From Amphiscolops sp. MND2022 (Eukaryota): a stretch of DNA of 64,000 bases. The notes under the pieces were generated by a model, which was not told the DNA's origin, searched no databases, and was given only the letters and a program-made list of their open reading frames with translations. This document shows, piece after piece, positions 12,277-64,000 of this stretch. The position numbers and the translations under genes are program-made. Position 1 is the stretch's first letter; every line of letters begins with the position of its first letter. The stretch spans positions 38,752,001 through 38,816,000 of the forward strand of contig OZ076409.1 of the NCBI GenBank assembly GCA_964187785.1. Direction: 5' to 3'.

Positions 12277-12537
12277 TGTAAAACGGTACACATACCGGAT
12301 CGATCTTTCGGTGACATTGTCAATCAAACTTAGATCTTTTCCTAAAGTACCAAACATAACTTTCATCGAGATACTTATGTTCATATATATTGGTAAACAT
12401 CATATTTTTGTTTCGTACTGAGATTTTATCATTTGATATAGAAATATAATTAGAGAAAGATTGCGCGACAATCCTTTATGTTCGAAAGAGATTTTAGATA
12501 AAATTTTTGTTTTCTTATTCAACCAAGAAATAGAACA
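12277..12537 (+). repeat. LTR (261 bp), copy B
   Basis: Same PPT / TG..CA / PBS context as 9399-9659. Confidence 0.9.
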
Positions 12538-13317
12538 TGGCGCAGTCAGCAATCTAAATTACCCAAGAAACTTTTATCGAGACAAAGAAGATGACAGATA
12601 AGAGCAAGATTGAAGTACCGAATTTCGAAGCCACATCAGACGGAAAAAGAATATTTGCACCAAAAAAATGGCTCGAAAGATTTCGGCAAACTCCGAAAAG
12701 AAAACACAAAATGGACATCACTGAACTATTACGTTGAATTGAATTAAAACAAACCGATTGGTCCGGAAAACATGCAGAAATCCAAGAAGACCTCAAAGGG
12801 GGGATCGGTCTCGTAGCACTATACCAGATGACAAGGGCGGAATACAAAACAGAACCCGACAAAGTAGCGGTGAAAGACCTTATCCGACTATATAAATTCT
12901 GAAAACCTCAAAAAGTGGTGGACAGATTCACCGAACAAAAAACCAAAATTCATCAAAATGGTGAAAGAATTGACAGTCAAGCACCCACTTGGGGTTGTCA
13001 TAAGTCACGAGATCAATCAATCCTGCACTGTTGCGGCAACGGAAGACTCAACATGGTCAATCTGAAGTTTAAGGGCGCGACATCCTCCCAGGCATAGTGT
13101 CAATCTGCGTAGAATGGCAAAGCTGATTTTTGTACGAATTGAGCCAATTGCGTCAGAAAAGCTGTCAAATCCTCTGTGAGATGTTCAACGCAAGTCTTGA
13201 CATAACTTTCAAACCCAACGGTCCTGGGCCATATCAGTACAGGCAAATAACAGCAAGTTGATGGTGCTGTGTACCATTTTTTCGGTTCTCTGATCATATT
13301 TCAAGTTTTCTAATTTT

Positions 13318-14008
13318 CGTTTTGTTTGTTACCATCTTTGATGTTTCGGAGACAGTATGCTGCGCGAGGATTGAAGATCTTCACGTCAACAAATGCACGA
13401 CAAAAGCGGGAATCCCAGAGTCCATTGGCCTTGATATCGAGGCGGGCTTCATCTTTAGTGCATGTGGTTCGGTAATCGAAAGATTCGCCTTCAACGTCAG
13501 AAGGCTGGGTTCGTTTTCGATATCACAACAAACCTCTCTCTAAATATTGGCGAAAGTGTCACGGTACTCATTTTGGCGCATATGAGCGTATCCTCCGTTG
13601 CCGCAGTGGAGTGCGTGTGAGATTGCGAAGTCTTCCCCACAGAGGCATTTTAAGTGAAGATTTTCAGGCTGAAGGCCCAACTGTCCTGAAACTCGGTTTT
13701 TGTCAGATCCAAGACATAGTGTTTCAATAGTCGAGCTGTGAGCCACTTGAAGACACAAGTTTCAGATGCCAGAGCCAAGAACTATTGTTGATTGGTTTCA
13801 AGTGTCGTCTGCGGTGAGACAGTTTTTGTTTTCAATATTCCGTTTCTCGATGATCTCATTGCTTTTTTCGCTTCATCGATGTTCACTGCATCTGCGTTCT
13901 CGAGGTGTTGGTTGACTTTTTTTGACCATGTGAGATCATTTTTTCTATCGTCAAAAGTTGTTCAACCCTCCGTTTTTCAGTGGAAACGCCAGCAATTCCC
14001 TCATCGGT
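13318..14008 (-). mobile_element. Duplicate CRE-like RLE fragment
   Basis: Near-identical to 10440-11130. Confidence 0.8.
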
Positions 14009-14051
14009 GACGACGGTGGATTTTGTCCGGTCATGTTGGGTATTAAGGGTT

Positions 14052-15228
14052 AGGGACAATTTGCCGAAAGACATTTTGTCGAAAGTCAATTTGCCGAAAC
14101 CCAATTTGCCGAACGTGAAGGACAATTTGCCGAATTTTTTTTGGCAAATTGTCCCTTTGAATTTGCCGAATTTTGTAGGGACAATTTGCTGAATACCCAG
14201 CGTTTTCAAATAACAATGTTCTTGGGTGTCTGATATGCCCCCATTTCGCCTAGTGCCCCGCGGCCCCTTGGGGCCGCTTATGTTCCCATCTTGCTAAGCG
14301 AGGTCGAACAGGAGCAAACACCTAGCGGGCACAATGATCGCGGAGCGTGCATACACCATATATGACCCCATATTATGTGAGGAGAAGTACCTAATCTATT
14401 TCCAACGCTTCGCAGGAGCAAAAAGCGGAAACGGGACATTTTGCCAAAAGAAAATTTGCCGAAACCCAATTTGCCGATCGTGAAAGACAATTTGCGGAAA
14501 ATATTCGGCAAATTGTCCTTGAGTCAATTTTCGGTAAATTGTCTTTCGGCAAATTGTCCGGTATCCTGGTATTAACTTTTATCGCAAAATCGTCTCGCTA
14601 CTATCGAAAACATCCGTGAGATTAAGTGTAGTGCGTTGTAAAAACGTTAATTTGTGCTCTGCCACGTTTATGAAAGCGTGGTATATTTTCCAGCGCAATT
14701 TCTCGACTGAGTAGAAAGTTTGTTTGGTGGATCGTAAGTATGTAGAAAACCAGTTTGTTCAATCCAGTTTGTAGAAATGTGAGGTCCTTTTTGTAGATCT
14801 TTTCTACAAACTGGACCATGTTCTTTTTTTGAATTAGGTCCAGTTTGCAGAATACCAGTTTGTAGAAATCATTATTTCAAAAAGAAAAACAATTAGGACC
14901 AATGTAGGAATGATGCAAAGTGTAAAACGTGCCTCGGATATGTCCCCATTTCCTCTAGTGGGCCGCGGCCCGGGTAAATGGTCACTTGGCTTAATGCCAT
15001 TTGGCCTAAAGTCATTTGGCTTAACACAATTGGTCACTTGGCTTCATTTTTTTAAGCTAAGTGTCTCTAGTATTGGTCACTTGGCTTAAAGTCGTTTGAC
15101 CTAAATTCACTTAGTTGAAAAGACGTGGCAGATTTTGTCGAATTTATCTTTATAACGTAGTTAGCGTCAACATGTCATATCAAGTACCCCTCGGATATGT
15201 CCCCGTTTCCTCTAGTGCCCTGCGGCCC
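14052..15228. repeat. Cluster of modular short-motif repeats / MITE-like pieces (partial copies at 11174-11529 and 21617-21971; extended copy at 24500-26510)
   Basis: Arrays of AATTTGCCGAA (with inverted TTCGGCAAATT), CCAGTTTGTAGAA and TGGTCACTTGGCTTAA, plus a recurrent core GATATG(T/C)CCCCATTTC..TAGTG..C.GCGGCCC. Confidence 0.75.
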
Positions 15229-15237
15229 TGCATTTCC

Positions 15238-18200
15238 TCACAAATGCCCGGCATTGGGAAAACTTTGCAATAACTGCGGAAAAACGGGACATTTCGCACG
15301 CATATGCACACAAAAAAGCTACAAACGCAAAGTACGCAAGGTAACTGAAGACGAATCAGAGGCAATTCCAGGAGAATCCGACGAATCAGAGACAAGCATA
15401 CACAGAATCAAAAGAATAAAAAGAATCACCGACAGAAACAAATATCTAACAACAATAGTAAAAGTAAACAGAATTGAGAAAAAATTCAAAGTGGAAACCA
15501 GGTCACCAAATTCAATAATGCCCGTAGACGAAAAGATAACGAAGCAAACCGAGATACAGAGAGTGAAACACCGGTATCACGGTGTCAAGGTTTAAACAAA
15601 AATGAAGTGAAGTTCCGGAGGAAACTACCGGTGAATTTTGAATACGAGAACAACAAACAGAAAATGCAAATTCTGATTACCGAAAGACACGACATTACAC
15701 GGCTACTCGGAATGGATGGGATGAGACAAATTCAAATTACCAAATGGAAACATCCGAGTGCAGGACAGTAACTAATCAGAAAAGAGACAAATAATCGAGA
15801 AGTTCCCGGATCTATTCAGAAATAACATTATGGATACGGATAAAAGATACTGCGATCAAAATCCAACTGAAAACGGGATATTATCCGCTGAAACAAAATG
15901 TAAAACCGATCCCTCTACACTTAAAAGACGACGCCGGGAGAAAACTGGACAAACTAATAAAAATCGGACTTTTGGAGAAAGTAAAATATGTAGATGAAGA
16001 CTGTTTTGTTTCACCGGTGATAATTACGGTAAAAAACGACAAGTCGGTAAAAATTGCATTAGGTTCGAGAAAACTGAACAACAGTTGCAAAAAAATCCGA
16101 CCAAACATGCATGCCAAATATGGAAGAACTGTTAAATCAAATCTCGGTAGAAATCACAAAAGACCAAACGCAAGAACTAATTAAATCGAAAAATGATCTC
16201 AACTATGCGTAAGGCCAGATGAAATTATCAATGGGAACAAGCCGACAATGTGTATTCGCAACAACCGGAGGAAAGTTTAGCGGATATTAACGATTCAAAA
16301 AAAGATTCTGCGGTCTTGGCGACATCCCAACAATATTTCAAGAGAATTTCGATCGAAGTTTGGAATACTCTACAACGGCATGGCTAGACGATACAAAAGT
16401 GGTAACCCGTGGCGACCGGAAAGAACACGAAAAGAAACTATTCGATGTATTAAAGAAACTAGAAAACACAGGATACCGAGCAAGCGAAAAAAAATCCGAA
16501 TTTTTCTTAAGGAAATCAAGTTGGCTCGGACACGAAATCGATGAGACGGGAATCACACCGAACAAAGAAAAATTGAAAGCATTTTTGGATTTGAAACACC
16601 CAGAATCTCAAAAAAAATTGTAGTCATTCCTCGGTGTAATACAATACCATGCGAAATTCTTACAGAGACTATCGCAAAAAACGCAGAGACTCCTAAAAAA
16701 GGACTCGGTATGGAACTGGGGGAAACAACAAGACGAGGATTTCAACAACATAAAAGAAATGTTAACCGAAGAACCCTGGTTAGCACATTACGCAAAGGAC
16801 AGAAAAAACATCGTTACAACCGACGCTAGTAAAACCGGACTCGGACTAATTTTATGGCAGAAACACTCCGATGGAGAAATAAAACCGATAGCATTCGGCA
16901 GCAGATATCTAAATGATAGCGAAAAGAATTACTCAATCGGAAACTTAGAACTACTTGCAGTTGTTTGGGGATTAGAGAAACTCCGATTTTATTTATACGG
17001 AAAGAAAGTCTTTTCATATACCGACCACCAAGCACTTGAACCCTTGATTAAAAGAAACCGATGTAATAGACAGTAGAGCGCATGACTAACTAGATGGTTA
17101 GACCCAGTCGCGCACTTTGATATTGCCATCCAACATATCGCAGAAGCAATTTAAAATTCACCGACATTCTAAGTAGAAATCCGGTGGAGAAAGCAGCGAG
17201 CGAAGACGTATACGATGAGCAATATGGAAATACCATCCTTTCAGAACATGTCGAATCAAACGTAAATTACGGACCACTATTCATTGACCAATCACAAAAC
17301 GCACCGGAAAGAATTAAAACAACCGAAGAAAATCAAAATCACCAATCACAACGGAATAGAACATTTGGGAAAAACCGAGACGTGAACAAAAATTACGATT
17401 AAGCGGAAAGCGCATCGAACAAACGCCGACAAAAAGCTAAAACGGACAGTTCAATCCAAAACTTAAGAATAAATCTGATTCCAAATTCACACTTACCAAA
17501 AGAATTACCTCTATTTAAGAGTGAAATCGACAGAGACTACTTGCATTGCGGCGCAACTGTCGAAATTATGGAGATAATAAGAAGACGAAGAAAGATCCCA
17601 GAAACCCTTAGACTCGTAGAAAGACGGCTGGAAATCTCCCAACCTGGAGCAATGCGCCGGAAAACCGACATGATCGCGCAAATACAAATTTGGGTCCTCT
17701 TAAGACCCCGAAAAAAAGAAGCTGTGAAGAAATTGCAGAGATCTACAGCGAATTGATATCGAAGGCGAACAGATTCGGCGGGGGATTGATATCAACGCCT
17801 TAAAAACGAAGAGAAGAGGAACAAGAACCCCAACAGTCGGAAACAATTGAAGACACCGAACAAGAAAGTGAAGGCGAAAGCCAAGGAATCCGGTGCGACA
17901 ACTTCCCTATCGTCGACCTAAAAGCATATAATACGGAATGAAAAGAAGCCTAGTTCAAACAGATAAACCAAGTCATTGAAAAAGTTACCGGCGACAAGAA
18001 GAGCACTGAAGACACGATCAGAAAGGCCGAGTTTAATTTTATGCTCGACTTGAAGATATTGATTGCAAAATCATCAACGGATGCCGAAGTCAACCGAGTA
18101 CGAGACGCAATGAGACGCGGCGAAAAAAACACGGCTCCGGACCAACACTGAACGATATTCGAGAAGCTGAACAACAAATGGGGGCTGACAATCAACGATG

Positions 18201-20100
18201 ACCAAAAATATTACCTACCGAAGTGAGAAAGAAGCTGCTAGATACTTTACATTTCGGACACGCCGGAGCTACCAAAAGGACAGCAGAGGCCAAAATCATT
18301 CAGTGGCCGAACATTCAAAAAGAAATTGAAGACAAAACAATAAAGTGGGTGGCCTGCATGTCATCGGGTAGAAATTTAAAATATCAAATTACCGAACCAT
18401 GAGTTCCGAAAACTAAAAACATTAACGGAACCGGGACAAGAATTTCAAATAGAGTTTTCCGGAAAATTAAACAACAAAAAACTGAACGGAGAACATCAGA
18501 TACTAATCGCAATGGAGGGATTCAGTAAATGGCCAACCGCCAAAATTTGCAAATCATCGAAAACAAAGGAAGTATTAAACTTTTCAAACAAATTTTTAAT
18601 TTGTACGGATTAGGGGAGAGAAAAAAATTGGACAAAGGGGGGCATTTGTCTCAAAAGAATACAAAGAATTTGGACCTCGAAAAACATCGAAATTGGATAC
18701 AGCACACCGAGAATGCATACCGGTACGGGAGCAGTAGAACGCGCAATACAAACATTGAAGAACCTAATTATTGCAGACTTGGAAGACAACACATGTTTAA
18801 CCGAATGCGTAAGTAGAGCATTGAACGTCATGCAGTTCACAATACATAAGGGACTAGAAACAACACCGTTTGAATTACACCACGGCTGGAAACCACGGAC
18901 CGAAATAACAAACATAATAAAAGACGGAAAATCGTTCCTTTCTAATTGGTCGCGACTACCTGTTTTAGCATACAATCGACCAAAGATACCAATCTATGTG
19001 ACCAGAAATGGTGAAGGAGAACTATCCAACCATGTTATCATGGCCCGAACGAAAATGGAACAGAAGGCAATATCCGAAAAATCGCCGAAGAAGAAAAATT
19101 CGGTTGGTAGATATCCTTTTCAATTCTTTGAAAAAAAAACATAATAGAAAATCATTGGAAGAAAAATTTCAGAAAAACATACAATTAACGGTAAAGGGCA
19201 CGGAGAACACCGTAACCACCGGTACCGGAAAAATAAATCTGAGAAATTTCTTTTCGGATCCGATTGTATTTCAGAATGAAAGAATGACAGCGCCGAAGAT
19301 CGGAGACACCATCACTCCAAAAAACCGACACTGACTCAGAGGAGTCGATGGAAAGTACATCCAATGGAATGAAATCCTGAGAGATGTACTAAACGGAAAG
19401 CTGAAAATTGTACAAAACCGAATCTGACACCGAGAGTGAGGAAGGCGAAAGAGACGAGGAAGAAAGTGATTTCGAGGATCACGATACCTTCGAAAAATAC
19501 GGCCGCAATCGACCAATTACAAAATCCCCCGAGGACGAATTAAACCTACATACGGACGGAGAGATAAATTCTGGTGAGAAACAAACAAATAATAAAATCA
19601 CCGAAAATGAAATAATAAGACGGTCCAACTGTGAAAGCAGATACGGGGGGATTACATATACAAAATTTTCTGGGTGTGAATTAAAAAGTTTTAAATGTCA
19701 CAGGTGTTACTGGCGAAAAATGGAACAACCGAAAAAAAGCACCCAAACCGCTAACGAGGCTTGCAGACTTCATCCGAGAGAAAACCCCAACACCTAGGAC
19801 ATCAAAATTGTAACCGAAGAAGATCCAGAAGGGAGGAATTGTAAAACGGTACACATACCGGATCGATCTTTCGGTGACATTGTCAATCAAACTTAGATCT
19901 TTTCCTAAAGTACCAAAAATAACTTTCATCGAGATACTTATGTTCATATATACTGGTAAACATCATATTTTTGTTTCGTACTGAGATTTTATCATTTGAT
20001 ATAGAAATATAATTAGAGAAAGATTGCGCGACAATCCTTTATGTTCGAAAGAGATTTTAGATAAAATTTTTGTTTTCTTATTCCACCAAGAAATAGAACA
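15238..20100 (+). mobile_element. Decayed Ty3/gypsy, copy 2 (5'-truncated duplicate of copy 1)
   Basis: Same pol motifs and most of the same stops and frameshifts as 4800-9659. Confidence 0.92.
19840..20100 (+). repeat. LTR (261 bp), copy A'
   Basis: Same PPT / TG..CA / PBS context. Confidence 0.9.
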
Positions 20101-20881
20101 TGGCGCAGTCAGCAATCTAAATTACCCAAGAAACTTTTATCGAGACAAAGAAGATGACAGATAAGAGCAAGATTGAAGTACCGAATTTCGAAGCCACATC
20201 AGACGGAAAAAGAATTTTTGCACCAAAAAAAATGGCTCGAAAGATTTCGACAATATCAGAAAAGAAAACACAAAATGGACATCACTGAACTATTACGTTG
20301 AATTGAATTAACACAAACCGGTTGGTCAGGAAAACATGCAGAAATCCAAGAAGACCTCAAATGGGGGATCAGTCTCGTAGCACTATACCAGATGACAAGG
20401 TCGGAATACAAAACAGAACCCGACAAAATAGCGGTGAAAGACCTTATCCGACTATATAAATTCTGAAAACCTCAATAAGTGGAGGACCGATTCACCGAAC
20501 AAAAAACCAAAGTTCATCAAAATGGTGAAAGAATTGACAGTCAAGAACCCATTTGGGGTTGTCATAAGTCACGAGATCAATCAATCCTGCACTGTTGCGG
20601 CAATGGAAGACTCAACATGGTCAATCTGAAGTTTAAGGGCGCGACATCCTCCCAGGCATAGTGTCAATCTGCGTCGAATGGCAAAGCTGATTTTTGTACG
20701 AATTAGGCCAATTGCGTCAGAAAAGCTGTCAAATCCTCTGTGAGATGTTCAACGCAAGTCTTGACATAACTTTCAAACCCAACGGTCCTGGGCCATATCA
20801 GTACAGGCAAATAACAGCAAGTTGATGGTGCTGTGTACCATTTTTTTGGTTCTCTGATCATAATTCAAATTTTCTAATTTT

Positions 20882-21572
20882 CGTTTTGTTTGTTACCATC
20901 TTTAATGTTTCGGAGACAGTATGCTGCGCGAGGATTGAAGATCTTCACGTCAACAAATGCACGACAAAAGCGGGAATCCCAGAGTCCATTGGCCTTGATA
21001 TCGAGGCGGGCTTCATCTTTAGTGCATGTGGTTCGGTAATCGAAAGATTCGCCTTCAACGTCAGAAGGCTGGGTTCGTTTTCGATATCACAACAAACGTC
21101 TCTCTAAATATTGGCGAAAGTGTCACGGTACTCATTTTGGCGCATATGAGCGTATCCTCCGCTGCCGCAGTGGAGTGCGTGTGAGATTGCGAAGTCTTCC
21201 CCGCAGAGGCATTTTAAATGAAGATTTTCAGGCTGAAGGCCCAACTGTCCTGAAACTCGGTTTTTGTCAGATCCAAGACATAGTGTTTCAATAGTCGAGC
21301 TGTGAGCCACTTGAAGACACAGGTTTCAGATGCCAGAGCCAAGGACTATTGTTGATTGGTTTCAAGTGTCGTCTGCGGTGAGACAGTTTTTGTTTTCAAT
21401 ATTCCGTTTCTCGATGATCTCATTGCTTTTTTCTCTTCATCGATGTTCACTGCATCTGCGTTCTCGAGGTGTTGGCTGACTTTTTGTGACCATGTGAGAT
21501 CATTTTTTCTATCGTCAAAAGTTGTTAAACCCTCCGTTTTTCAGTGGAAGTGCCAGCAATTCCCTCATCGGT
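20882..21572 (-). mobile_element. Duplicate CRE-like RLE fragment
   Basis: Near-identical to 10440-11130. Confidence 0.8.
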
Positions 21573-22726
21573 GACGACTGTGGATTTTGTCCGGTCATTT
21601 TGGGTATTAAGGGTTAGGGACAATTTGCCGAAAGACGTTTTGTCGAAAGTCAATTTGCCGAAACCCAATTTGCCGAACGTGAAGGACAATTTGCCGAATT
21701 TTTTGGGCAAATTGTCCCTTTGAATTTGCCGAATTTTGTAGGGACAATTTGCCGAATACCCAGCGTTTTCAAATAACAATGTTCTTGGGTGTCGGATATG
21801 CCCCCATTTCTTCAGTGCCCCGCGGCCCCTTGGGGCCTCTTATGTTCCCATCTTGCTAAGCGAGGTCGAAAAGGAGCAAACACCTAGCGAACGCAATGAT
21901 CGAGGAGCGTGCATACACCGTATATGACCCCATATTAGGTGAGGAGAAGTACCTAATCTATTTCCAACGCTTCGCCGAAGAAGAAAAATTCGGTTGGTAG
22001 ATATCCTTTTCAATTCTTTGAAAAAAACATAATAGAAAATCATTGGAAGAAACATTTCAGAAAAACATACAAACCACGGTAAATGGCACGGAACACACCG
22101 TAATCACCGGTACCGGAAAAATAAATCTGCGAAATTTCTTTTCGGACCCGATTGTATTTCAGAATGAAAGAATGACAGCGCCGAAGATCGGAGACACCAT
22201 CACTCCAAAAAACCAACACTGACTCAGAGGAGTCGATGGAAAGTACATCCAATGGAATGAAATCCTGAGAGATGTACTAAACGGAAAGCTGAAAATTGTA
22301 CAAAACCGAATCTGACTCCGAGAGTGAGGAAGGCGAAAGAGACGAGGAAGAAAGTGATTTCGAGGATCACGATACCTTCGAAAAATACGGCCGCTATCGA
22401 CCAATTACAAAATCCCTCGAGGACGAATTAAATATACATACGGACGGAGAGATAAATTCTGGTGAGAAACAAACAAATGATAAAATCACCGAAAATGAAA
22501 TAATAAGACGGTCCAAATGTGAAAGCAGATACGGGGGGATTACGTATACAAAACTTTCTGGGTGTGAATTAAAAAGTTTTAAATGTCACAGGTGTTACTG
22601 GCGAAAAATGGAACAACCAAAAAAAGCACCCAAACCGCTAACGAGGCTTGCAGACTTCATCCGAGAGAAAACCCCAACACCTAGAACATCAAAACTGTAA
22701 CCGAAGAAGATCCAGAAGGGAGGAAT

Positions 22727-22987
22727 TGTAATACGGTACACATACCGGATCGATCGTTCGGGGACATTGTCAATCAAACTTAGATCTTTTCCAAAAGTAC
22801 AAAACAGAACTTTCATCGAGATACCTATGTTCATATATATTTGTAAACATCATATTTTTGTTTCGTACTGAGATTTTATCATTTGATATAGAAATATAGT
22901 TAGAGAAAGATTGCAAGACAATCCTTTATGTTCGAAAGAAATTTTAGATAAAATTTTTGTTTTCTTATTCAACCAAGAAATAGAACA
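22727..22987 (+). repeat. LTR (261 bp), copy B'
   Basis: Same PPT / TG..CA / PBS context. Confidence 0.9.
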
Positions 22988-23767
22988 TGGCGCAGTCAGC
23001 AATCTAAATTACCCAAGAAACTTTTCTCGAGACAAAAAAGATGACAGATAAGAGCAAGATTGAAGTACCGAAATTCGAAGCCACATCAGACGGAAAAAGA
23101 ATATTTGCACCAAAAAAATGGCTCGAAAGATTTCGGCAATATCCGAAAAGAAAACACAAAATGGACATCACTGAACTATTACGTTGAATTGAATTAACAC
23201 AAACCGGTTGGTCCGGAAAACATGCAGAAATCCAAGAAGACCTCAAATGGGGGATCGGTCTCGTAGCACTATACCAGATGACAAGGGCGGAATACAAAAC
23301 AGAACCCGACAAAGTAGCGGTGAAAGACCTTATCCGACTATATAAATTCTGAAAACCTCAAAAAGTGGTGGACAGATTCACCGAACCAAAAACCAAAGTT
23401 CATCAAAATGGTGAAAGAATTGACAGTCAAGCACCCACTTGGGGTTGTCATAAGTCACGAGATCAATCAATCCTGCACTGTTGCGGCAATGGAAGACTCA
23501 ACATGGTCAATCTGAAGTTTAAGGGCGCGACATCCTCCCAGGCAGAGTGTCAATCTGCGTAGAATGGCAAAGCTGATTTTTGTACGAATTGAGCCAATTG
23601 CGTCAGAAAAGCTGTCAAATCCTCTGTGAGATGTTCAACGCAAGTCTTGACATAACTTTCAAACCCAACGGTCCTGGGCCATATCAGTACAGGCAAATAA
23701 CAGCAAGTTGATGGTGCTGTGTACCATTTTTTCGGTTCTCTGATCATATTTCAAGTTTTCTAATTTT

Positions 23768-24456
23768 CGTTTTGTTTGTTACCATCTTTGATGTTTCGGA
23801 GACAGTATGCTGCGCGAGGATTGAAGATCTTCACGTCAACAAATGCACGACAAAAGCGGGAATCCCAGAGTCCATTGGCCTTGATATCGAGGCGGGCTTC
23901 ATCTTTAGTGCATGTGGTTCGGTAATCGAAAGATTCGCCTTCAACGTCAGAAGGCTGGGTTCGTTTTCGATATCACAACAAACCTCTCTAAACATTGGCG
24001 AAAGTGTCACGGTACTCATTTTGGCGCATATGAGCGTATCCTCCGTTGCCGCAGTGGAGTGCGTGTGAGATTGCGAAGTCTTCCCCACAGAGGCATTTTA
24101 AGTGAAGATTTTCAGGCTGAAGGCCCAACTGTCCTGAAACTCGGTTTTTGTCAGATCCAAGACATAGTGTTTCAATAGTCGAGCTGTGAGCCACTTGAAG
24201 ACACAAGTTTCAGATGCCAGAGCCAAGGACTATTGTGGATTGGTTTCAAGTGTCGTCTGCGGTGAGACAGTTTTTGTTTTCAATATTCCGTTTCTCGATG
24301 ATCTCATTGCTTTTTTCTCTTCATCGATGATCACTGCATCTGCGTTCTCGAGGTGTTGGTTGACTTTTTTTGACCATGTGAGATCATTTTTTCTATCGTC
24401 AAAAGTTGTTCAACCCTCCGTTTTTCAGTGGAAACGCCAGCAATTCCCTCATCGGT
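23768..24456 (-). mobile_element. Duplicate CRE-like RLE fragment
   Basis: Near-identical to 10440-11130. Confidence 0.8.
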
Positions 24457-27313
24457 GACGACGGTGGATTTTGTCCGGTCATGTTGGGTATTAAGGGTTA
24501 GGGACAATTCGCCGAAAGACATTTTGTCGAATGTCAATTTGCCGAAACCCATATTTCCGAACGTGAAGGACAATTTGCCGAATTTTTTTTGGCAAATTGT
24601 CCCTCTGAATTTGCCGAATTTTGTAAGGACAATTTGCCGAATACCCAGCGTTTTCAAATAACAATGTTCTTGGGTGTCGGATATGCCCCCATTTCCCCTA
24701 GTGCCCCGCGGCCCCTTGGGGCCGCTTATGTTCCCATCTTGCTAAGCGAGGTCGAACAGGAGCAAACACCTAGCGGGCACAATGATCGCGGAGCGTGCAT
24801 ACACCGTATATGACCCCATATTATGTGAGGAGAAGTACCTAATCTATTTCCAACGCTTCGCAGGAGCAAAAAGCGGAAACGGGACATTTTGCCAAAAGAA
24901 AATTTGCCGAAACCCAATTTGCCGATCGTGAAAGACAATTTGCGGAAAGTATTCGGCAAATTGTCCCTGAGTCAATTTTCGGTAAATTGTCTTTCGGCAA
25001 ATTGTCCCGTATCCTGGTATTAACTTTTATCGCAAAATCGTCTCGCTACTATCGAAAACATCCGTGAGATTAAGTGTAGTGCGTTGTAAAAACGTTAATT
25101 TGTGCTCTGCCACGTTTATGAAAGCGTGGTATATTTTCCAGCGCAATTTCTCGACTGAGTAGAAAGTTTGTTTGGTGGATCGTAAGTTTGTAGAAAACCA
25201 GTTTGTTCAATCCAGTTTGTAGAAATGTGAGGTCCTTTTTGTAGATCTTTTCTACAAACTGGACCATGTTCTTTTTTTGAATTAGGTCCAGTTTGCAGAA
25301 TACCAGTTTGTAGAAATCATTATTTCAAAAAGAAAAACAATTAGGACTAATGTAGGAATGATGCAAAGTGTAAAACGTGCCTCGGATATGTCCCCATTTC
25401 CTCTAGTGGGCCGCGGCCCCGGTAAATGGTCACTTGGCTTAATGCCATTTGGTCTAAAGTCATTTGGCTTAATACAATTGGTCACTTGGCTTCATTTTTT
25501 TAAGCTAAGTGTCTCTAGTATTGGACACTTGGCTTAAAGTCGTTTGACTTAAAACCACTTAGTTGAAAACACGTGGCAGATTTTGTCGAATTTATCTTTA
25601 TAACGTAGTTAGCGTCAACATGTCATATCAAGTACCCCTCGGGTATGTCCCCATTTCCTCTAGTGCCCTGCGGCCCCGTTGGGCCGCTTACGTTCCCATC
25701 TTGCTAAACGAGGTGGAAGAGGAGCAAAGACCTAGCGCGAACGGAGATCGCGAAGGATGTGTGAAGGTTGTCCAGTTTGTAGAATTTAATGATCCAGTTT
25801 GTAGAAATGAATGATCCAGTTTGTAGAAAAAAACCTACAAACTTTTCCACCTAGGACCAGTTTCTAGAATTCTACAAACTGGTACTCTACAAACGACCTA
25901 ACTCCGACGTGCCCTATGACCATGCTTGAATGTTGCGGGTGGCTGTAAACAGGTCGAATTTTTCTGGTCGAAAGGACTGAGGTCGAACCTTTTGATCGAA
26001 TTACAGGGATCGAATGGAATGCGGTCGAATTTTATCGTATTTGTTGTATGGCTCGGTCGCTTCGCTCCCTTCGCCAAGTAGCAACATTGAGGCATGGCCA
26101 TAATGGCACGTCGCTCCGCTTCGCTTCGCTCCTGCATTTAGGGCACTAGGGGTATGTGAACATATCTGACTACGTTTTAAAAATTTCGATCCGAGTTGTT
26201 TCGATCCCATTCAAAAAATTTGGTATGTCGACCTGAGGACTAACTCTGATTTTCGATCCCGTTCCTTCGACCTATTTCCGCCCACCCGAATGTTGCTACT
26301 TGGCAATGGCAGCGAAGCGACCGAGCCATATAACAAATATACCAACCTCTTCTCCCAAGTTTGTTGAATTTGAGGTCAAGTTTGTAGAATTTCAGGACAA
26401 GTTTGTTGAATCGTATAGTGAGTTTGTAGAAAAAAATTCTAAAAAACTTACCCATCCATAGTAAGTCTGTAGAATCAAATGAACTTGCTTTCCACAAACT
26501 TACTATAATCTGTTTGTTCAGCAGTGCCAAAAATTTGGTTGCATTTTCAATTTTGCATTTCTCACAGGCGGAAGAAGAGCCTGTTACAGAACCCAACACA
26601 CGATGACGTCGAGGTTTTCAAATAAAGTTCTTGCCACTTTTTTGTGACTGTTTTGATGAGGCGATATTTTTGGTGTATCCAAAAGCAGGTCCATGTTGTA
26701 TTAATTTTTTGTAGAGCCTATATATTGCGTCGAGCTTCCCGACAGCATTGCCGTCGTCGGCATATTATTTTTGTGCAATCTCTGTCTTTGAGCAGTCTCA
26801 TTAGTGGTAGAAGAGCGAGTCTGTACATCGACATGGCTGATGGGTTGGTTTGATTATTCCTTCCTGCATCAGATATCATGGATCTTCGTCATCAATCAAG
26901 TGTATTGTGTATCATCATGTTGGGGGGAGAAGACACACCGGTGGTCTGCGACGAACGTAGGGAACCCCATACTAGCCACTATCCCAGTAGACCAGTAACA
27001 AAAATAACAACCAGTAAACTACTCATACCGGCTACTATCGCAGTCGACCGGTAGAAATTTTTCTTAAAGCTACAATGATATAAAGGTTTTTTTTACAAAA
27101 AAAATGTAGTAAGTATATGTTCCTTCCTGTGATAATAGATTTTTGCCGTTTACATTTCCAAGTGTAAGAGTCCTAATGTTAATAATCTTTTGCTGACTTT
27201 CGTTGGGAAAATCTAATCATGCGTTTAATTTTCGATCAATGTACTTCGTTGATCGGAATAAAGTCTTATTTTTTTATGTAGCTGATTGGGGAAGTAGGGC
27301 ACTTTCAGAAGGA

Positions 27314-55095: not shown

Positions 55096-55293
55096 TATGA
55101 GACTGTTTAAAACTCTCATTTTTTGTCTGATATCAGGTTTTCTCAATATATATCCACTAAAAATGTTTTTCAATTCCATCCGAATTTTTGACGTACGTCA
55201 AAAATTCGAATGGAATTGAAAAACATTTTTAGTGGATATATATTGAGAAAACCTGATATCAGACAAAAAATGAGAGTTTTAAACAGTCTCATA
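55096..55293. repeat. 198-bp spacerless palindrome (1 mismatch) inside a decayed HINE-like element (~54925-55635)
   Basis: TATGAGACTGTTTAAAACTCTC..TTTTTGACGT|ACGTCAAAAA..GAGAGTTTTAAACAGTCTCATA. Confidence 0.95.
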
Positions 55294-56280: not shown

Positions 56281-57435
56281 TGTAACGGATCCAAGAAATT
56301 TATGACTGACAGACTTGCAAAGAAATTTTAAAATAACCCGCAAACTGTTCGACTACGACATGAATTTGAGGCTCAAAAATAGCCAGTGCACTATGAAAAC
56401 GCAGAGAAGTTCGAACGAATGAAAGTGAATGTTTACACTATTCTAACCCACGGAATAGCTGGAAAATGTTACAAAACCTGCATGAAAACGTTCAACTTTT
56501 TTGTATTTTTAGGGGCATTTGTGTGCATTTTTCTACTCACAAAAATGCAAAAGTATACATTGAAAGGCGTACTGCATACATAGTTATTTCGTTCGGATCC
56601 TGATGAATGATAAATATTAAACAAAAAAGGTCAAAAAATATTACGGTCCCAAAGAAATTTTCTTTCAACGTTTGTATTTTCTATATAACAGCCTTTTTCT
56701 TATAGTATGAAATTCTCTTCTTTGTATGGGTTCGCTGACTGTTATGATAATTTGGAGTTCAGTAATTTAAAATTACTAAGGCTTTAGGACTACCGTAAGA
56801 GGGATATCTTGAGTGAAAGAGAAAAAGTTATTTTTGCTTTTTGGGGAAGAATTTAAATTAAAATGAAATCAGAGTTAAGAGATGAAACAAAGTTTTAAAT
56901 ACTTTTACAAGTTTACAAACTAACATATTGGGTGGACTATGGGTGGCTGAGTTGGAGTTCTGAATTTTGTTTCTTCTTCAGTTGATTGTTGTTGTCTTCT
57001 GGTTTGTAGCTTCTCCAATTGTTGAAAGATTAGAGATCGATTTTTATTTTTGTTAAACAAGATTAATAAACGGCATGAACACGATAAAACGGGTTCGAAA
57101 GAACAAGATTAAGCTCGCAGAACTCAAAATCTGCAAATCTGCAATTAATTACACTAGGCTCTGGATAAGTCCAGATAATTGAACAAAAACGTAAATAAAT
57201 GGGGATCGGAGTAATTGGACAAGATTTAAATGCGGGGTTTACAAAATACTGTATAAAACACAACACGTTGTAGAACTATCTGTGTAATTATGTGACTGGT
57301 TTTGTACTGATAAGCAAATTTGTATGTAACTTAGAAACATGAATTGTTTTAAGTGCTTTCTTGTTTTGTTTTGTTGCTCCGGCTTTTGTTTACTAGGGGC
57401 CGTCTTTGTTTTCGTGTTACCGCTTGCTTGTCACA
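56281..57435 (-). repeat. Putative 3' LTR (~1.15 kb)
   Basis: Minus strand: PPT AAAGAAGGAAGTGG (57436-57449) then TGTGACA. The candidate end ..CCGTTACA at 56281 gives imperfect TGT(G/A)AC inverted ends. The inner boundary is firm; the outer boundary is tentative because the partner LTR is outside the window. Confidence 0.62.
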
Positions 57436-57468
57436 CCACTTCCTTCTTTGTGAAATTGCGTCTCGCAA

Positions 57469-58450
57469 TTATAGATCCGTGAACTCGTGAAGATTTCGTA
57501 GAAACGGGTCGCAACGGCGACATGTCCGCAGACCAATTTCGTTTCGTTGTATTCCAGGAAGGCCACAACAAGCATAGACTTCCTTTAACGTGGGATCGAG
57601 GAGGATCCGTTTAGCTTCCTTGACAAACGGTATGTATTTGCTGGCCGTGGTTGTGGCAGCCTTATTTTTGTCGGGATGTAGTGTATGTACCAGCACGCGG
57701 TAGTTTTCCTGGATAATCTCGGCATAAGACGATGGGTTGCAACCGAGCAGATTGAACAACAAATTATCAGGGGCATCTTCAGGCTCAGGTTGTAAGGGTA
57801 GTTTTGTAATATGGTGAGCAAGCATCCTTTGTAGAATGGGGACTTGGCGTTGGGTGGCAGCTAAATTCCGGAGCGTGCTGAGTTCTTCAGTGAGCTCTAA
57901 AGTCGGTTGCAATAAGGACTCATTCTCCGCTGTAAGGGCGGACAGGCGTTTTTGGAGTGCTTCGTTAGCTGCCTCTAGCTCTTTGGTAGTCTCCAGTTGC
58001 TCACAAAGGACGTCCATGGTCAACGAAGTTTCGCGACGAGCATCCTCAAATGCTTGATTCAATGTAGTAACATCGTCGAAGCGTTTTGTTAGGAACGCTG
58101 CATACTCGTCAGTGTCGACGCAGCATTGAGTACCGGTGTCAGCGGTATCCGGCCAAACACGGGGAGGGGTTGGCTCACAGAGGCAGTTTGGGGTCGGCTC
58201 GTCAACCATGAGACAAGCATCTTGGCTTGCTGGAGGTAACACGCAAATGGCTGTTGATGGGCGCATGAAGCTGCGCTGGTTAGGAGTAGCGTCCATTCGT
58301 CGTAGGACAACAGTCCCACTGTGGGGATTAACACGTAGGACAGTGTATTCACGTTCGTCCAGAATCTGCACGGTGTCGCCAGGACTGATGGAGGCGATTT
58401 TCCCAGAACAGGTGTATAGATTTGCTCCTGCACGGCGCTTGGCGGGGAAC
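57469..58450 (-). CDS. Accessory ORF: N-terminal beta-rich module + coiled coil + C-terminal DnaJ/J-domain
   Basis: Intact ~327 codons. J-domain LFNLLGCNPSSYAEIIQENYRVLVHTLHPDKNK..FVKEAKRILLDPTLKEVY has the HPD motif and helix I-IV pattern. Heptad region LEAANEALQKRLSALTAENESL. Splice acceptor at 58451. Confidence 0.85.
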
Positions 58451-58645
58451 CTGAAACATAACAAAAGATTAAAAGAGACCGATTAGGGTTTTATGTGACA
58501 ATTTAAAGTGTAAAAGGAGGGGTTTTGACGACTGTAAGATGGAAACTGAGATCTTGAGCTACAGAATGATTAAAGCTTTATTTGCGAGAGACAATTCACG
58601 GTTTTATTTTGTAGACTGGACACATAGGTATGGACAAGAATTAGG

Positions 58646-58838
58646 GCACGGACACGTGCATTGACTAGGCACAACACGGAAACGTGTGGAGAGGGCACGG
58701 AAACGTGCAAAGTGAGGACTAGACGCAAACGTGTATGTTAGATAACACAATTTTTTTGGGCACGGAGACGTGCAGAAAAGGGGCAGAGATAAGTCTGCGT
58801 TAGTGTCCATCCAAATAAAACGGGGCACGGATACGTGC
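58646..58838. repeat. Array of GCACG-GANA-CGTGC mini-palindromes
   Basis: Perfect units at 58646, 58674 (ACACG/CGTGT), 58695, 58760 and 58825; one imperfect unit at ~58721. Confidence 0.9.
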
Positions 58839-58956
58839 ACAAGGTGGTGACTAAGAGTCACGGCTAAAAGTCACCAAATTAGGATAGTTATTTGTATTAA
58901 TACTTTTATATATACATATATAGAGAGGTGGTGTCGAGGCATTTAAAGGGTTGTAG

Positions 58957-61294
58957 CTATGTCGTCGTCTCGGAGTAGTGAGGAGCAGTAACATCTGGAT
59001 AAATTCGTGGAGGAATAATTGTTGGAACTGTATCGGAGATGCAATTAGAGTCACGCGTCATTTGTAAGGTTTCCTTAGCCAGGCCTTGTAGGGCAAGAAA
59101 TTCGTTCTTTGTCAGATAGAGGAACGGCGCGTTATTCTCTATCAGTGAGGGGTTTTCACTGTCGTCCAAGATGTGGATGAATTGGCCTTGGGAACTTGTG
59201 AAGAAACGTTGAGGATGAAGAAACAGACGTTTCCATAGTCTGCGGAAGAGTGTGAAGCTGATAGTAAAAGATAACAAGGAAAGTGTAATGGAAATGCCGG
59301 AAAAGAGTGCGGCTGTACGATAAGGCAAATACGATTGCAGGGCATGTGATGTGGCTGGTGATATTGACGAGTAATGATCTGCGATGGGTTTAGTTAACTC
59401 ATCAATTGCGGTGTTTGTCATTCTATGGACATCAGGAAGCTCCGCAAGCTCCATCTGGACGCTGCCGATAATGGATTCGCGGGCTTCTCCAAGCGAGTAG
59501 GCATGGAAAACATTGCTAGACTGGGGAACATGCTTGAACACTTGTTCAAGTGACGGGGTAAGGGCAACAGTAGCTACAAACGGTTCTGGATGCGTTTCAC
59601 AGAAGTCCATGTCAGGCGACAGTACAAGATCGCCCTGATTGAAAGAGAGCGTACTGGTACAGCTCGGGCGCATTATACAAGCTTGACACATTACAGTGGT
59701 GACTGAGATACCATGTAATCGGCTATCGTTTTTCACTTGCAAGACCGGATCTCTTGAGATTATGTGGTACAAACCATCCGCTAAATAGAATGCCTGTGGG
59801 GCATTTGGTAGGAGTACAGATTGAACGGGACAGTTCCTCAGGCTAGGAATGTCATAGTTGTAGAGTAGGGAACTCAAACAAAGAAGTGTTTCGTCTGTCG
59901 TAGTAGAGAAACCCTTGCGACAGAGTTTGATCCTATTATTCCCTGAGCACTGTTGTAGTGTGGAACCTTCGAGTTCCGCAAAACGGGAGTTGTCCGTAGA
60001 AACTGCCAAAAAGGGCTTTTGAAGCTGGTACAGAGATGCTGTCTTGTTGTCCCCATTCGGTTGATGCAGGGGATCGCGTGATACACATCAAACGTGGAGG
60101 ACTTGGAATTCATAGGAATTCCGAGCACTACTGAGATGCCACGAGGAATCAGTGTGACCTCTAGCACGATGTTAATTTCATAATAGATAGCTTCGTACCC
60201 TGGTTGAATAGCTGGCGATAATTTAGTACCGCGGCGGACTTCATCGTCAGAGAGTTCTTGCACGATGTCCGCAATCTCCTGTGGTAAGAGAAACTGGGGC
60301 GTAATGTGGCCACTCGCGAGAGATGAGATGGTGGAGAACAAGTTAATCTTGTAAGCGTAGAAAGCAGCTTGGTAAGATTTGATGTGAGTGTAGAGAGAAC
60401 CCATGTCTGATATGAAGTTACGAATCTCCTGAAGGAACTTTATATGGACCGTTTCTAATCTTTGGCACTCCTTGTGTGCTACTATCGTACCTTTTATGGT
60501 GCGTACCTCTTTGTCTATTCTGTGTAAATGCTCATTTATTTGGTCCCTTATTTCTTGCAGATTATGTTGTGTTGCTTTGACTTCATTACCGAGAATGAAG
60601 AAATTTTAGGTCATTCCTTGCCTGCACGCGCTGCAGAGTCAAAATGGTCTTCTGTTGGGTATCCAAGACAGCTTCGACATCTCGCGACAACTGGCTGTTA
60701 TCGCTACACATGTTGAATATTGATAACGCTGTACATGCAGCGTCCTTGATCGGATCACCCAAGATTAATCCGGCGCCTGCTCCAATAGCTGCAACAGCGC
60801 CAACAAACCGTTTCTTTCGGGGAGCAGAAACTTCTTCTGTCCTATAAATCTGTGGCAAGAATGACTTCGTTATCTCGGAGAGGCCATTTTGGTCCTTGAC
60901 CGATGCGCTCATCTCCTTTTTTACCAGATTGACTCTTTCTTCCAACTGCTGGACCACTAGACTGTAGGTTTCGTTTATCTTCTCCCAATAACAGCTTGTC
61001 TGGGCGTACATACCGCCGACTGCTATCGTTTGTACTTTGGCTAGAGCCAACAGGCGTTCGACTTCAGTAAGATTCACTTCCGGTATTTTCGGAAACGGGG
61101 AAAACACACGAACTTTGCTCTCACTCTCGGAGGTGACAGCTTGGTACTTGAACAGGAAGGCTGCGCCTTTCTTGAATACAGGGACTTCAGGATTGTCATT
61201 GAGGTGGGTAGAGTAATGCGTAATGGCGACGCAAACTTGAGAAGTGAACAACCGGCAAAGGAGGGTGAACACTTTGTCGTTTGGAAAGTGTCGC
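58957..61294 (-). pseudogene. env: env: class I (F-type) fusion glycoprotein, ~780 aa, with two frameshifts (~60607, ~60065)
   Basis: Furin site RKKR followed by fusion peptide FVGAVAAIGAGAGLILG; heptad repeat; ISSLASGHITPQFLLPQEI motif; Cys-rich block (QCSG..LCRKG..LCLSSL..NC); TM AALFSGISITLSLLSFTISFTLF then RRLWKR. The three ORF-track pieces join after single-base corrections. Confidence 0.9.
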
Positions 61295-61449
61295 CTGAAA
61301 GTAAGAGATATGCGTGAAGGTTTGTATGTGTCCAATTGGTATCGTAGAAATAGATAGAGGATATAGTGTACAAGCTAATGATTGCTAATTCTTCCCGTTT
61401 TATACTTTTTGTTGGTTTTTTGAATATACTAAAGGAGGGAGATGCGAAT

Positions 61450-64000
61450 TCAGGTGCGTTTGCTGTTACGCTTCTGTTTAGAAGTGTTGGGGGAATTGAA
61501 GTCAGTGACATCGTTTGGGAGATTTGCTTTCCATAACGGTTCAGCTCTACGCTGGGCTTGCGTTGATTCGCGAAGTGTGCGTGATCTTGGTTCGGGGAGG
61601 TGGAGAGTACGTGCTGCCTGATGCATAGCATGTCGGTACCAAGGCGAGGTTTCATTAGAGGGAAGATTTGATGAGACGGGGCTGGTCGGGAGGCTTTTCG
61701 TTAACAGGGGTTTGTTGGGGGAGGAATTGAGCCAGCTGGGTGATGTATTCTGGTAGGAAGGTTGGTTGGGAGAAATAGAGGGAAATCGTTGAAGAGGTGA
61801 TTCTGCATGAAGAGGTCCGGATGTTGGGGTGGTTGTTGTGTGAGTGGTGGGAGCGATTGGGGCTGTTGGTGACGCAACAAAAGGAGTAGAAGGTGCAGAT
61901 AAGGGGGTTCCCGGGGTAGCAGATGAAGGTGCGGGCGCGAAAGAAAATGGCCAATTACATTGATCGTGATCAAATGCAGAAGCAGTTTCAGGGTTTTCTT
62001 TACTATGAGGTTTTGGGTTTGCAAACTGACTTGTATCTCGGGTTGGGACATTGGATGTAGGTGGGGGTTCTTTGAATGGTTTCAAGCGATCGTAATGAAC
62101 CACCAATTCCTTTTGAGTTTGTTGGTCTTGAATCCGATAAGTTACGTCGTTAATGTCCTGCAAGATGACATAGGGGCCTTTCCACGGGCTGAAGAACTTC
62201 GATGTTTTGCCAACTGGCACAACTGGATTGTGAAGCAAAACTTTCTGTCCTGCTTCGTAGAGGGGTCCGTGAACTTTGCTGTTATAGATGGCGTTTCGTC
62301 TCTTCTGGTTTTGATTGAGGGCGGACCGAGCCAGTTCGTAAGCCTTTTGGAAGGCTAGTTTGCGCGCGGAGACAAATTCATTCGTATTTGACGCTGGTTG
62401 ATCCTTTGGGTTGGGGTACATGAAATCGATGGGTAATGAAATTTCTTGACCATAGACAAGAAAGTGGGGCGTGTAGCCAGTCGATTCATGTACGGAGGTA
62501 CGATATGCCATCATGACATAAGGCAATTGTGTTGACCAATTGTCCTGCTCGTCGTTCACACACTTTTCAAGCATGCTTTGAAGGGTCCGGTTCATCCGCT
62601 CGATAACAGCGTTGGACTGCGGTCGAAAAGCCGTGGTACGGGTTTTCTCAATCTGGAGAGATTGCATTAACAGTTTGAAGATTTTTGACTCAAAATTACG
62701 ACCTTGGTCACTGTGGATGCTATAAGGAAATCCGAAGCGGCAAATCCAATGTTGTAGCAACGCATTGGCAGTTGTAGAAGCTGTTTGATCTGGAAGTGGA
62801 ATGGCTTCGTACCATTTCGTGAAATGATCTCCAATTAGTAGTATGTGCTGGTTCCCGTTAGACTGCGGCAAAGGACCCAGGAAGTCAATACCAATGTGAT
62901 GGAATGGGTAGCTAGGGGGCCAATCCGAGAGAGAATGCAGGTGTTTCTTTGGAGGGTTGGCCCTTTTTTGGCATTGTTCACATCTACCAATGAATAATTT
63001 ATTATCTTCCTTGAAATTAGGCCAGTAGAAACGTTTTCGTACTTTTTCAGTGGTTTTGAATACACCTAAGTGTCCTCCAGTAGGTGAAGCGTGAACTGAT
63101 GAGAGTATTTCCTGGACCATATCAGGTGGTACTATCTGCTGGAAATAATGATCTCCGGTTTTGATCAGTTCGAAACGTCGGCATAGGATGCCATCTCTAA
63201 TTAACAGGCTCTTTAACTGATTGGCCAGTCGCCAGGTTAGACGGGGAGAACCCTGCAACTCCTTGTTACTCGGTGTTGTACCATCGGTTATCCACTGATG
63301 AACAGTTTTCAGTGCTGGATCTTTCTGCTGGGCGCTTCGCAGAGGGTTTGAATCGTTATCTTGGAGGACTTTAGTCCCTTGAGAAGGCTCACTGATTTTT
63401 AGAGGTGACTTGTCTTCAGGAGCCAGTTGTTTTGTAACTTCTGGTAGAGTGAGAACCGTCACTCGGATTACTGAACCATGAAACAAATCTTGTATCATGT
63501 CCCTTACTTCCTTCCAATCCAATTTGTCGAGACCACATCCAATTCTGGGCAAGCTAATGCGTGTGACATTATTTGTTTCGGCATGGGTTCTCAACGCTAT
63601 GAGAGAGGCTCTAAGGTTCTTGTATGTAGGTTTATGGAAGTAACGTCTTTTCGTTATTAGGTGGTACAGGAATCGCTGAGACTGGTTAATCACCTGGGGC
63701 CAAAGGGGTGCATTGTTAACCATTTCCTTTGTAGGTATCTTCGTCGGGAATTGCAGTTTTAGTTCCTGAGCAATTCCGGAAGACATTTTGAAGTCAGCCG
63801 ATATGCAGTGCGCAATGGAGTCGGCGACCTTCAAAAGGTCTCCTTCCTTCTCGGTGTAGTTAGCTTGGTTTGATCGGTTTGGCCATTCGGACTCGTCTTC
63901 GTAGTAAACTGTTCCTCCCGGCTGATCAACAGGTTCCGGTTGTGTCGAGACTATATTCAATGCTCTGGTTGGCGTGCGGGATAGACCGTCTGCGTGTCCA
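61450..64000 (-). CDS. pol: pol C-terminal part: end of RNase H, TARG1/OARD1-like macrodomain, integrase (HHCC, DDE, GPY/F), Pro/Ser/Thr-rich tail; open at the window edge
   Basis: In-frame HADGLSR at the window edge; EGDLL..SIAHCISADFKMSSGIA..YHLITK..KPTY..ISLPRIGCGLDKLDW; H-ASPTGGH..CEQC; IDFLGP, HSDQGRNFES, AVIERMNRT; WKGPY; no stops over >836 codons. Confidence 0.95.
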   Translation of the reverse strand, partial: GHADGLSRTPTRALNIVSTQPEPVDQPGGTVYYEDESEWPNRSNQANYTEKEGDLLKVADSIAHCISADFKMSSGIAQELKLQFPTKIPTKEMVNNAPLWPQVINQSQRFLYHLITKRRYFHKPTYKNLRASLIALRTHAETNNVTRISLPRIGCGLDKLDWKEVRDMIQDLFHGSVIRVTVLTLPEVTKQLAPEDKSPLKISEPSQGTKVLQDNDSNPLRSAQQKDPALKTVHQWITDGTTPSNKELQGSPRLTWRLANQLKSLLIRDGILCRRFELIKTGDHYFQQIVPPDMVQEILSSVHASPTGGHLGVFKTTEKVRKRFYWPNFKEDNKLFIGRCEQCQKRANPPKKHLHSLSDWPPSYPFHHIGIDFLGPLPQSNGNQHILLIGDHFTKWYEAIPLPDQTASTTANALLQHWICRFGFPYSIHSDQGRNFESKIFKLLMQSLQIEKTRTTAFRPQSNAVIERMNRTLQSMLEKCVNDEQDNWSTQLPYVMMAYRTSVHESTGYTPHFLVYGQEISLPIDFMYPNPKDQPASNTNEFVSARKLAFQKAYELARSALNQNQKRRNAIYNSKVHGPLYEAGQKVLLHNPVVPVGKTSKFFSPWKGPYVILQDINDVTYRIQDQQTQKELVVHYDRLKPFKEPPPTSNVPTRDTSQFANPKPHSKENPETASAFDHDQCNWPFSFAPAPSSATPGTPLSAPSTPFVASPTAPIAPTTHTTTTPTSGPLHAESPLQRFPSISPNQPSYQNTSPSWLNSSPNKPLLTKSLPTSPVSSNLPSNETSPWYRHAMHQAARTLHLPEPRSRTLRESTQAQRRAEPLWKANLPNDVTDFNSPNTSKQKRNSKRT

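Follow-up and report, generated by a model that had tools for sequence, protein, structure and literature searches.

The window, a stretch of 64,000 nucleotides from the genome of Amphiscolops sp. MND2022, carries on its minus strand a gene for a J-domain protein, which lies between env and the polypurine tract (PPT) of an LTR retrotransposon. As judged from its copies, this J-ORF is a standing gene of a clade of Ty3/gypsy elements that is kept under purifying selection, a real accessory gene that is apparently undescribed. The best explanation, with a probability of roughly 0.45, is that its J-domain protein would be made from a spliced RNA and would act as an adaptor through which cytosolic Hsp70 of the host is brought to the Gag-RNA particle of the element itself.

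The J-ORF, its element and its predicted splicing

Together with the neighbouring stretch, the window's copy is an LTR element of 9,867 nt with LTRs that are 98.1% identical and a 4-bp target duplication (56680-56683, beside the 3′ LTR). All its parts lie on the minus strand. The 3′ LTR (56684..57435, 752 nt), whose 5′ counterpart lies past the window end, is abutted by the PPT (57436..57449), and upstream of these follow the J-ORF exon (57469..58450), a spacer of 506 nt with five CACGT-n-CCGTG repeats (58451..58956), an F-type env spread over three frames (58957..61374) and the 3′ part of pol (61450..64000), encoding integrase with its H2C2, rve and C-terminal SH3-like parts. The primer-binding site (PBS) is complementary to the 3′ end of host tRNA-Leu(CAG). 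A furin site and a fusion peptide are present in the env sequence; the Baculo_F profile on env of one of two relatives stays below its cut-off (E 3.6e-5, 23.0 bits vs 24.1). Compared with its closest relative, the window's copy misses a 2.65-kb block comprising two leader ORFs, gag (with PR) and the beginning of pol. Both env and the rest of pol are broken, and the copy is dead. Complete relatives measure 12.5-13.5 kb in the order LTR, PBS, ORFa, ORFb, gag, pol, env, J-ORF, PPT and LTR, and Pfam matches on relatives give the Ty3/gypsy order, gag and then PR-RT-RNase H-IN. Among the first ten elements pulled, nine have paired LTRs at 98-100% identity and all ten have the J frame behind env.

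The stop-free ORF that the earlier note had placed just before the PPT is borne out: the stop-to-stop frame has 337 codons (57469-58482) and the J-ORF stop lies 19 nt from the purine tract, while the longest frame in the shuffled 1.5-kb region has 257 codons and 337 was reached in 0 of 2000 shuffles. The limits claimed for it stand in part, in that the frame exists and its end at 58450 is the first base past a splice-acceptor-like site. The predicted exon begins with G at 58450 and continues with 326 codons (58449-57472) and a stop. The first in-frame ATG is at residue 52, and this Met is not conserved (Val in the closest copy). Four parts can be distinguished along the protein; an N-terminal small beta barrel of the KOW/Tudor/SH3-type fold (residues 9-70, 58240..58425), seen by AlphaFold2 and fold searches, a long helix predicted to form a coiled coil (residues 115-199, 57853..58107), whose length varies among families, the J-domain (residues 232-292, 57574..57756; PF00226) with HPD at 57670-57678, and a C-terminal cysteine tail (57511..57570) with conserved C295, G299, C310 and C313, possibly a metal site. 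In 16 sequences at 29-70% identity, HPDK is invariant, and F61, R63, C89, C91, C295, G299 and C313 are kept along with it. The basic PAKRR stretch, which the earlier note had listed among the features of the protein, is present in the window's sub-clade and absent from four other families, so that it is no general signal.

The J protein is likely translated from a spliced RNA. The predicted acceptor (58451..58490) has a CTAAT branch-like site (58486-58482), a pyrimidine tract and AG at 58452-58451. Its position and phase are shared by 9/9 elements listed, with the G always in the third-codon position, and AG·G (the dot marks the predicted junction) is kept in 35 of the 36 copies having the region. 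The acceptor-like site of env, with an exon start at 61294, has a phase identical to that of J. A donor-like site, AT·GTTAGT, is found in the 3′ LTR (56919..56926); the working copy would be that of the 5′ LTR. The pattern AT·GT(A/T)AGT occurs 192-240 nt before the LTR end in 5/5 families, against a chance rate of two matches in 57,105 nt of element body, and the donor is kept in 34/36 copies with an LTR found. Since the donor ends with AT and the acceptor starts with G, an ATG in the J frame would form at the junction. The donor of the 5′ LTR would join the acceptors of both env and J, and the start codons of both genes are very probably made in this way. The start codon of env in Drosophila gypsy is supplied by splicing, for which a literature search found no paper. 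The available text of one report describes gypsy env as made from spliced RNA (PMC4276936). Other donors were considered. Leader, gag or pol donors with an upstream ATG in phase 2 were found at no position shared across families, and leader ORFs as an exon 1 fused to J were dropped for the LTR donor. No processed copy showing the splice junction was seen among 30 loci. One database relative begins with Met-Phe at exactly the predicted position on a contig of 1,950 nt, and this is not decisive for splicing because its cluster mates start in the same way on contigs of 11-13 kb.

Spread among copies and selection

The J-ORF protein has at least 140 matches in the 1.07-Gb assembly (123 scored of 213 candidates), and the J-ORF is found inside LTR-bounded copies with 4-bp target duplications; it is a gene of the element and not a single-copy host gene. 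For a census of J, copies were chosen by a 601-nt piece of RT in three families, to avoid selecting by J itself. J was present in 36 of 37 copies, and the sole J-less copy is also without env. This census does not include three RT-picked copies with large insertions, in which J matches are found 10-40 kb off, nor one truncated copy. At least five families have the gene, their proteins sharing 29-44% identity with that of the window. Of 26 young copies, 17 have an intact J and 16 an intact env, and lesions amount to 0.84 per kb in J and 0.44 in env, the rate in J being probably inflated by gaps in diverged alleles. The copy closest to the window has a frameshift near the start of J. As J is no more often intact than env, the contrast between an intact J and a frameshifted env in the window's copy, on which the earlier note had built an argument, is a matter of chance.

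Selection is evident from the comparison of copies. The dN/dS of J is 0.11-0.24 in 14/14 diverged pairs, which are not independent (each p <= 1.2e-14), not near 1 and as low as that of pol and env within the same pairs. Among J variants common to several copies, amino-acid changes are depleted to 0.24 (p 4e-28, in the only family with enough variants), and singleton variants give 0.44-0.65. Against its closest copy, the window's J shows a dN/dS of 0.85 (13 N, 5 S, p 0.78), whereas against 8/9 copies of its own family it shows 0.05-0.08, with dS near saturation. Therefore, selection acts on the transposing lineages and not on the window locus. Barrel, coil, J-domain and tail are each constrained, and the barrel is the most conserved with a dN/dS of 0.02-0.08. 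HPD is kept in 34/35 copies scored. All three checks to which the earlier note had tied the gene, namely a profile or structure match, dN/dS and the possibility of a single-copy host gene, were made, and none refuted it.

Two observations concern an individual copy and a single family. In an older copy at C3:42.67 Mb (L122-L123), QPD replaces HPD and the LTR donor is lost in both LTRs. In the L045/L046 family, diverged alleles of the J region (~91%, 86% and 81% identity) sit on copies with pol up to 99% identical; such alleles indicate that sub-lineages have recombined close to the 3′ end.

Among 1.84 billion representatives searched with a profile of the J-ORF family, 46 proteins reach E <= 1e-30 and 142 reach 1e-10. 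Some of them are own copies of this genome (99-100%). For a cluster of 24 members the best match here is at 70%, and for one of 6 members, whose alignment spans barrel, coil and J, it is at 26%; the J-ORF family therefore reaches other assemblies, where it is known from proteins alone. Pattern matches on viral contigs (29) and metagenome contigs (63) contained no relatives of the J-ORF protein, and the ESM Atlas gave no match at 0.9 or above for the J proteins of this lineage or of the second one described below.

The J-domain, its barrel and their possible client

The earlier assignment of a J-domain holds by profile and by fold. Pfam DnaJ (PF00226) matches residues 232-292 with E 1.6e-9 and 38.2 bits (cut-off 27.8), and this cut-off is passed by three of seven other family representatives and missed by four. 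In a profile search of the PDB, the protein matches DNAJC5 (E 2.2e-9). The AlphaFold2 model of the whole protein, made with 16 sequences (mean pLDDT 75.9, pTM 0.36), consists of the barrel (9-70), a low-confidence linker, a single helix at 115-199, in agreement with the coiled coil noted earlier, and the J fold. The top rows of Foldseek with this model are J-domains, with an rmsd of 1.7 over 66-72 columns and E 0.003 or weaker, none being at E <= 0.001. HPD sits between helices II and III of the four-helix fold. Among solved structures, the best matches are the J-domains of host DNAJC5, DNAJB and DNAJC10, and the likeness extends to the YDxxG end of helix IV, but it is confined to the J-domain and helix II of the J-ORF protein is less basic. 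In the 16 residues before HPD, the window's sub-clade has one K/R and three other families have 2-4. The count in 18 host J-domains is 2-6, with a median of 5, leaving aside three rows with a linker HPD. The J-domain is C-terminal, and there is neither the order N-terminal J, G/F and DnaJ_C nor any DnaJ_C match. By this exclusion of classes A and B, the protein fits class C, or type III, J-proteins.

Helix II, HPD and helix III form the interface at which a J-domain binds and stimulates Hsp70, and the client is chosen by other domains, according to the available text of PMC10410713. A complex model of the J-ORF protein with the host cytosolic Hsp70 that ends in EEVD reached a median score of 0.52, against 0.00 for the best of three controls; the partner pLDDT was 65-69, the runs shared at least 90% of contacts and alignments were not used. 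In calibration, the mark was reached by 51 of 78 solved pairs and 2 of 108 mismatched pairs. The support is rated as weak because the band of scores <= 0.60 holds only 5 of the 78 solved pairs but all four mismatches that passed, and the pass may reflect memory because J-Hsp70 complexes have already been solved. The J-domain probably stimulates Hsp70, with the few basic residues of helix II speaking against it.

The KOW/SH3-like nature that the earlier note had assigned by eye to the N-terminal segment is confirmed at the level of the fold. Folded alone by AlphaFold2, the barrel has a pLDDT of 83.5 and a pTM of 0.71. Spt5/NusG KOW domains come first in both fold searches (Z 7.7, rmsd 2.7, 60 aligned; Foldseek E 0.011), a Z in the range that the search tool rates as a common arrangement, so that the likeness is one of fold only. 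In the fold list, Tudor, chromo and BAH domains rank level with KOW, at Z 5.7-6.6. Pfam gave no KOW or Tudor match to the J-ORF protein at E <= 1.

According to the preferred explanation, the coiled coil would dimerise the protein, the barrel would pick the client, as in type III J-proteins, and the J-domain would recruit host cytosolic Hsp70 to it. The client would be the ribonucleoprotein or capsid of the element itself, whose assembly or opening would be served; this is the best guess, to which about half of the remaining probability falls. The Gag-RNA particle is favoured because J and env would be expressed together from one predicted donor and because the barrel is highly conserved.

On the client question, the main rival is that the gene serves counter-defence, which is possible, though not probable. 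The target of the barrel would then be a silencing protein of the host (PIWI/Argonaute, Tudor partners or repressive chromatin), on which the J-domain would set Hsp70, much as polyomavirus T antigen directs Hsp70 at Rb-E2F via its J-domain. The place of Tudor, chromo and BAH domains in the fold list agrees with such a target, and the swapping of the J region between sub-lineages within one family, at 91% identity where pol has 99%, fits a conflict with the host. However, the barrel is the most conserved part of the protein, unlike a fast-evolving conflict surface, and its only near-invariant aromatics, as candidates for a methyl-arginine cage of the Tudor type, are Y35 and F61.

The low basic charge of helix II could mean that the J-domain is degenerate or a decoy, its fold and HPD being retained to serve a different partner or to obstruct the J-proteins of the host, with no productive stimulation of Hsp70. 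The low Pfam scores of several families and the long branch between element and host J-domains agree with this reading, but HPD is invariant while its flanks vary, and the complex score, although weak, is above the control. This reading is considered unlikely. Still more improbable is an activator of transcription or RNA export like Tat or Rev, in which the Spt5/NusG-type KOW barrel would act on the polymerase or on the element RNA. The first place of Spt5/NusG KOW domains in both fold searches and the requirement of the element for several spliced and unspliced RNAs, as its predicted sites imply, are in favour, whereas no match of the barrel reaches Z 8 or E 0.001 and the basic PAKRR is limited to one sub-clade. 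Finally, a passenger host gene fragment or a domesticated host gene with no role for the element is largely refuted: the window's copy keeps J open while its gag is deleted and its pol and env are broken, but its divergence from the closest copy is as in post-insertion decay, J is broken as often as env and selected between transposing sub-lineages, and its best host match is merely 21-45% identical.

Other lineages and known systems

A genome scan with the DnaJ family (150 scored of 248) contains many paired J matches ~1.1 kb apart. A second Ty3/gypsy lineage of ~10.5-11.3 kb has an env of the gB type (PF24664, E 9.8e-19). In 5/5 loci examined (L190-L199; C5:54.00-54.02 Mb, C3:17.35 Mb, C8:14.28 Mb, C1:57.20 Mb and C4:53.68 Mb), two J-domain ORFs lie between this env and the PPT. 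The protein of each ORF has a short domain at its N-terminus, a coiled coil and, at the C-terminus, the J-domain (Pfam E 1e-17 to 3e-12). Among close copies, dN/dS of these genes is 0.32-1.42, none with p < 0.05; against one distant locus it is 0.16 on 64 codons. In profile comparison between the J proteins of the F-env and gB-env lineages, the J-domain alone aligns. In trees made from elements of this genome only, integrase joins the two lineages at 92/92, unstarred, and RT leaves them unresolved. In the J tree, the J-domains of the gB lineage are nested among host domains, those of the window's clade are separated from host ones by a long branch, and a topology with all element domains in one clade could not be rejected (p-AU 0.535). 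Either one capture of J or two would fit these results. A joint interpretation, in which two lineages with unrelated fusogens keep J genes behind env in a lentivirus-like layout of six genes and the KOW/Tudor-coil-J protein would be a weapon aiming Hsp70 at PIWI/Argonaute or chromatin silencing, is rather doubtful.

A third F-env lineage, related and far more numerous (L184-L189 and L200-L201; C1:13.8 Mb, C9:39.6 Mb, C13:15.3 Mb and C8:59.0 Mb), has an env of 759 aa and LTRs of 3.0-3.7 kb. Its fourth ORF, of 282-306 aa, is a different one with no Pfam match. J is absent in 4/4 copies examined, and it is therefore not needed by every env element. In one family of this lineage, the LTR contains an antisense ORF of 335 aa.

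Ty3/gypsy elements that carry an env of the F or gB fusogen type occur widely, as described in the available text of Chary and Hayashi (eLife, PMC13524379). Their "ancient errantiviruses" resemble the present elements in the order LTR-gag-pol-env, the F-type env with furin site and fusion peptide, the tRNA-Leu PBS, young multi-copy insertions and the presence of both env types in one genome, and differ in that the present elements carry one more gene, placed between env and the PPT, as well as two ORFs upstream of gag; the terms "DnaJ" and "J-domain" are absent from that text, and "DnaJ" from its seven supplements, as far as available. Those LTR retrotransposons of bdelloid rotifers that have captured an ORF3 (Rodriguez et al., PMC5408684) likewise carry a host-like accessory ORF at the 3′ end, which is described as expressed from spliced messages. 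However, the bdelloid extra ORF (GDSL, DEDDy, coiled coil or TM) occupies the ORF3 position, whereas J is added behind env, and DnaJ, chaperone and Hsp are absent from the available text. Type III J-proteins that recruit Hsp70 are encoded by viruses and phage, for example SV40 T antigens, the Molluscum contagiosum JDP and 057w/Rki of phage RB43 (PMC3486835, available text). Like the J-ORF protein, they join a J-domain to unrelated domains and are carried by a selfish element, but they belong to DNA viruses and phages, no likeness to the J-ORF was found outside the J-domain, and the J-domain of the J-ORF protein is C-terminal, behind barrel and coiled coil. In the accessible parts of further sources, DnaJ is absent from PMC8557442, PMC5890265 and PMC12440569, chaperone and Hsp from PMC6338049 and 'transpos' from PMC10410713, and a term look-up in the accessible part of PMC9940879 gave a single, unrelated mention. 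Literature searches, covering sources outside subscription journals, Repbase-type records and most supplements, did not turn up any LTR retrotransposon reported to have a J-domain gene.

Accessory genes for the redirection of host machinery typify complex retroviruses and large DNA viruses, whereas invertebrate env retrotransposons are described as gag-pol-env. The J-bearing clade keeps a putative chaperone-recruiting gene under selection of the strength seen in pol, together with two conserved leader ORFs, and a second lineage has two J genes, which suggests that three-ORF surveys miss a layer of accessory genes. If the J-domain works, the J-ORF would provide a small assayable protein to probe the role of Hsp70 in retroelements or the resistance of transposons to small-RNA silencing.

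Several further features were noted in these elements and around them. The leader of complete copies (e.g. L038:4730-5412, minus strand) has two conserved ORFs before gag with no Pfam match; one, of ~85 aa, combines a PPxY-like stretch with a transmembrane helix, and the other, of ~130 aa, has CxxC. Their dN/dS is 0.14 and 0.12 in the single well-diverged pair with both sufficiently intact, and constraint is weaker in other pairs. One family of the J-bearing element has two CxxC leader ORFs. Drosophila MDG1/412 elements have sORF1 and sORF2 upstream of gag, one with a transmembrane helix, a likeness of position and layout, but are without env (PMC11952523, in whose available text DnaJ is absent). 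A macrodomain-like insert lies between RNase H and integrase in the window (63480-63840, minus strand) and in relatives; Pfam Macro matches a relative's insert below its cut-off (E 0.0028), and the window's piece has no match at E <= 0.01. Tandem arrays of J-ORF and LTR fragments occur at C12:47.30 Mb, C12:54.72 Mb, C7:29.29 Mb and C1:21.59 Mb, and a long tandem array matching the tRNA-Leu 3′ end at C8:35.59-35.64 Mb; this 3′ end has 928 matches genome-wide, with a full tRNA at just one of four loci checked. Elsewhere in the window, a near-perfect palindrome with 99-nt arms and zero spacer lies at 55096-55293, and positions 8700-25000 hold four or five copies of a strongly A-skewed unit of ~2.9 kb at 86-100% identity.
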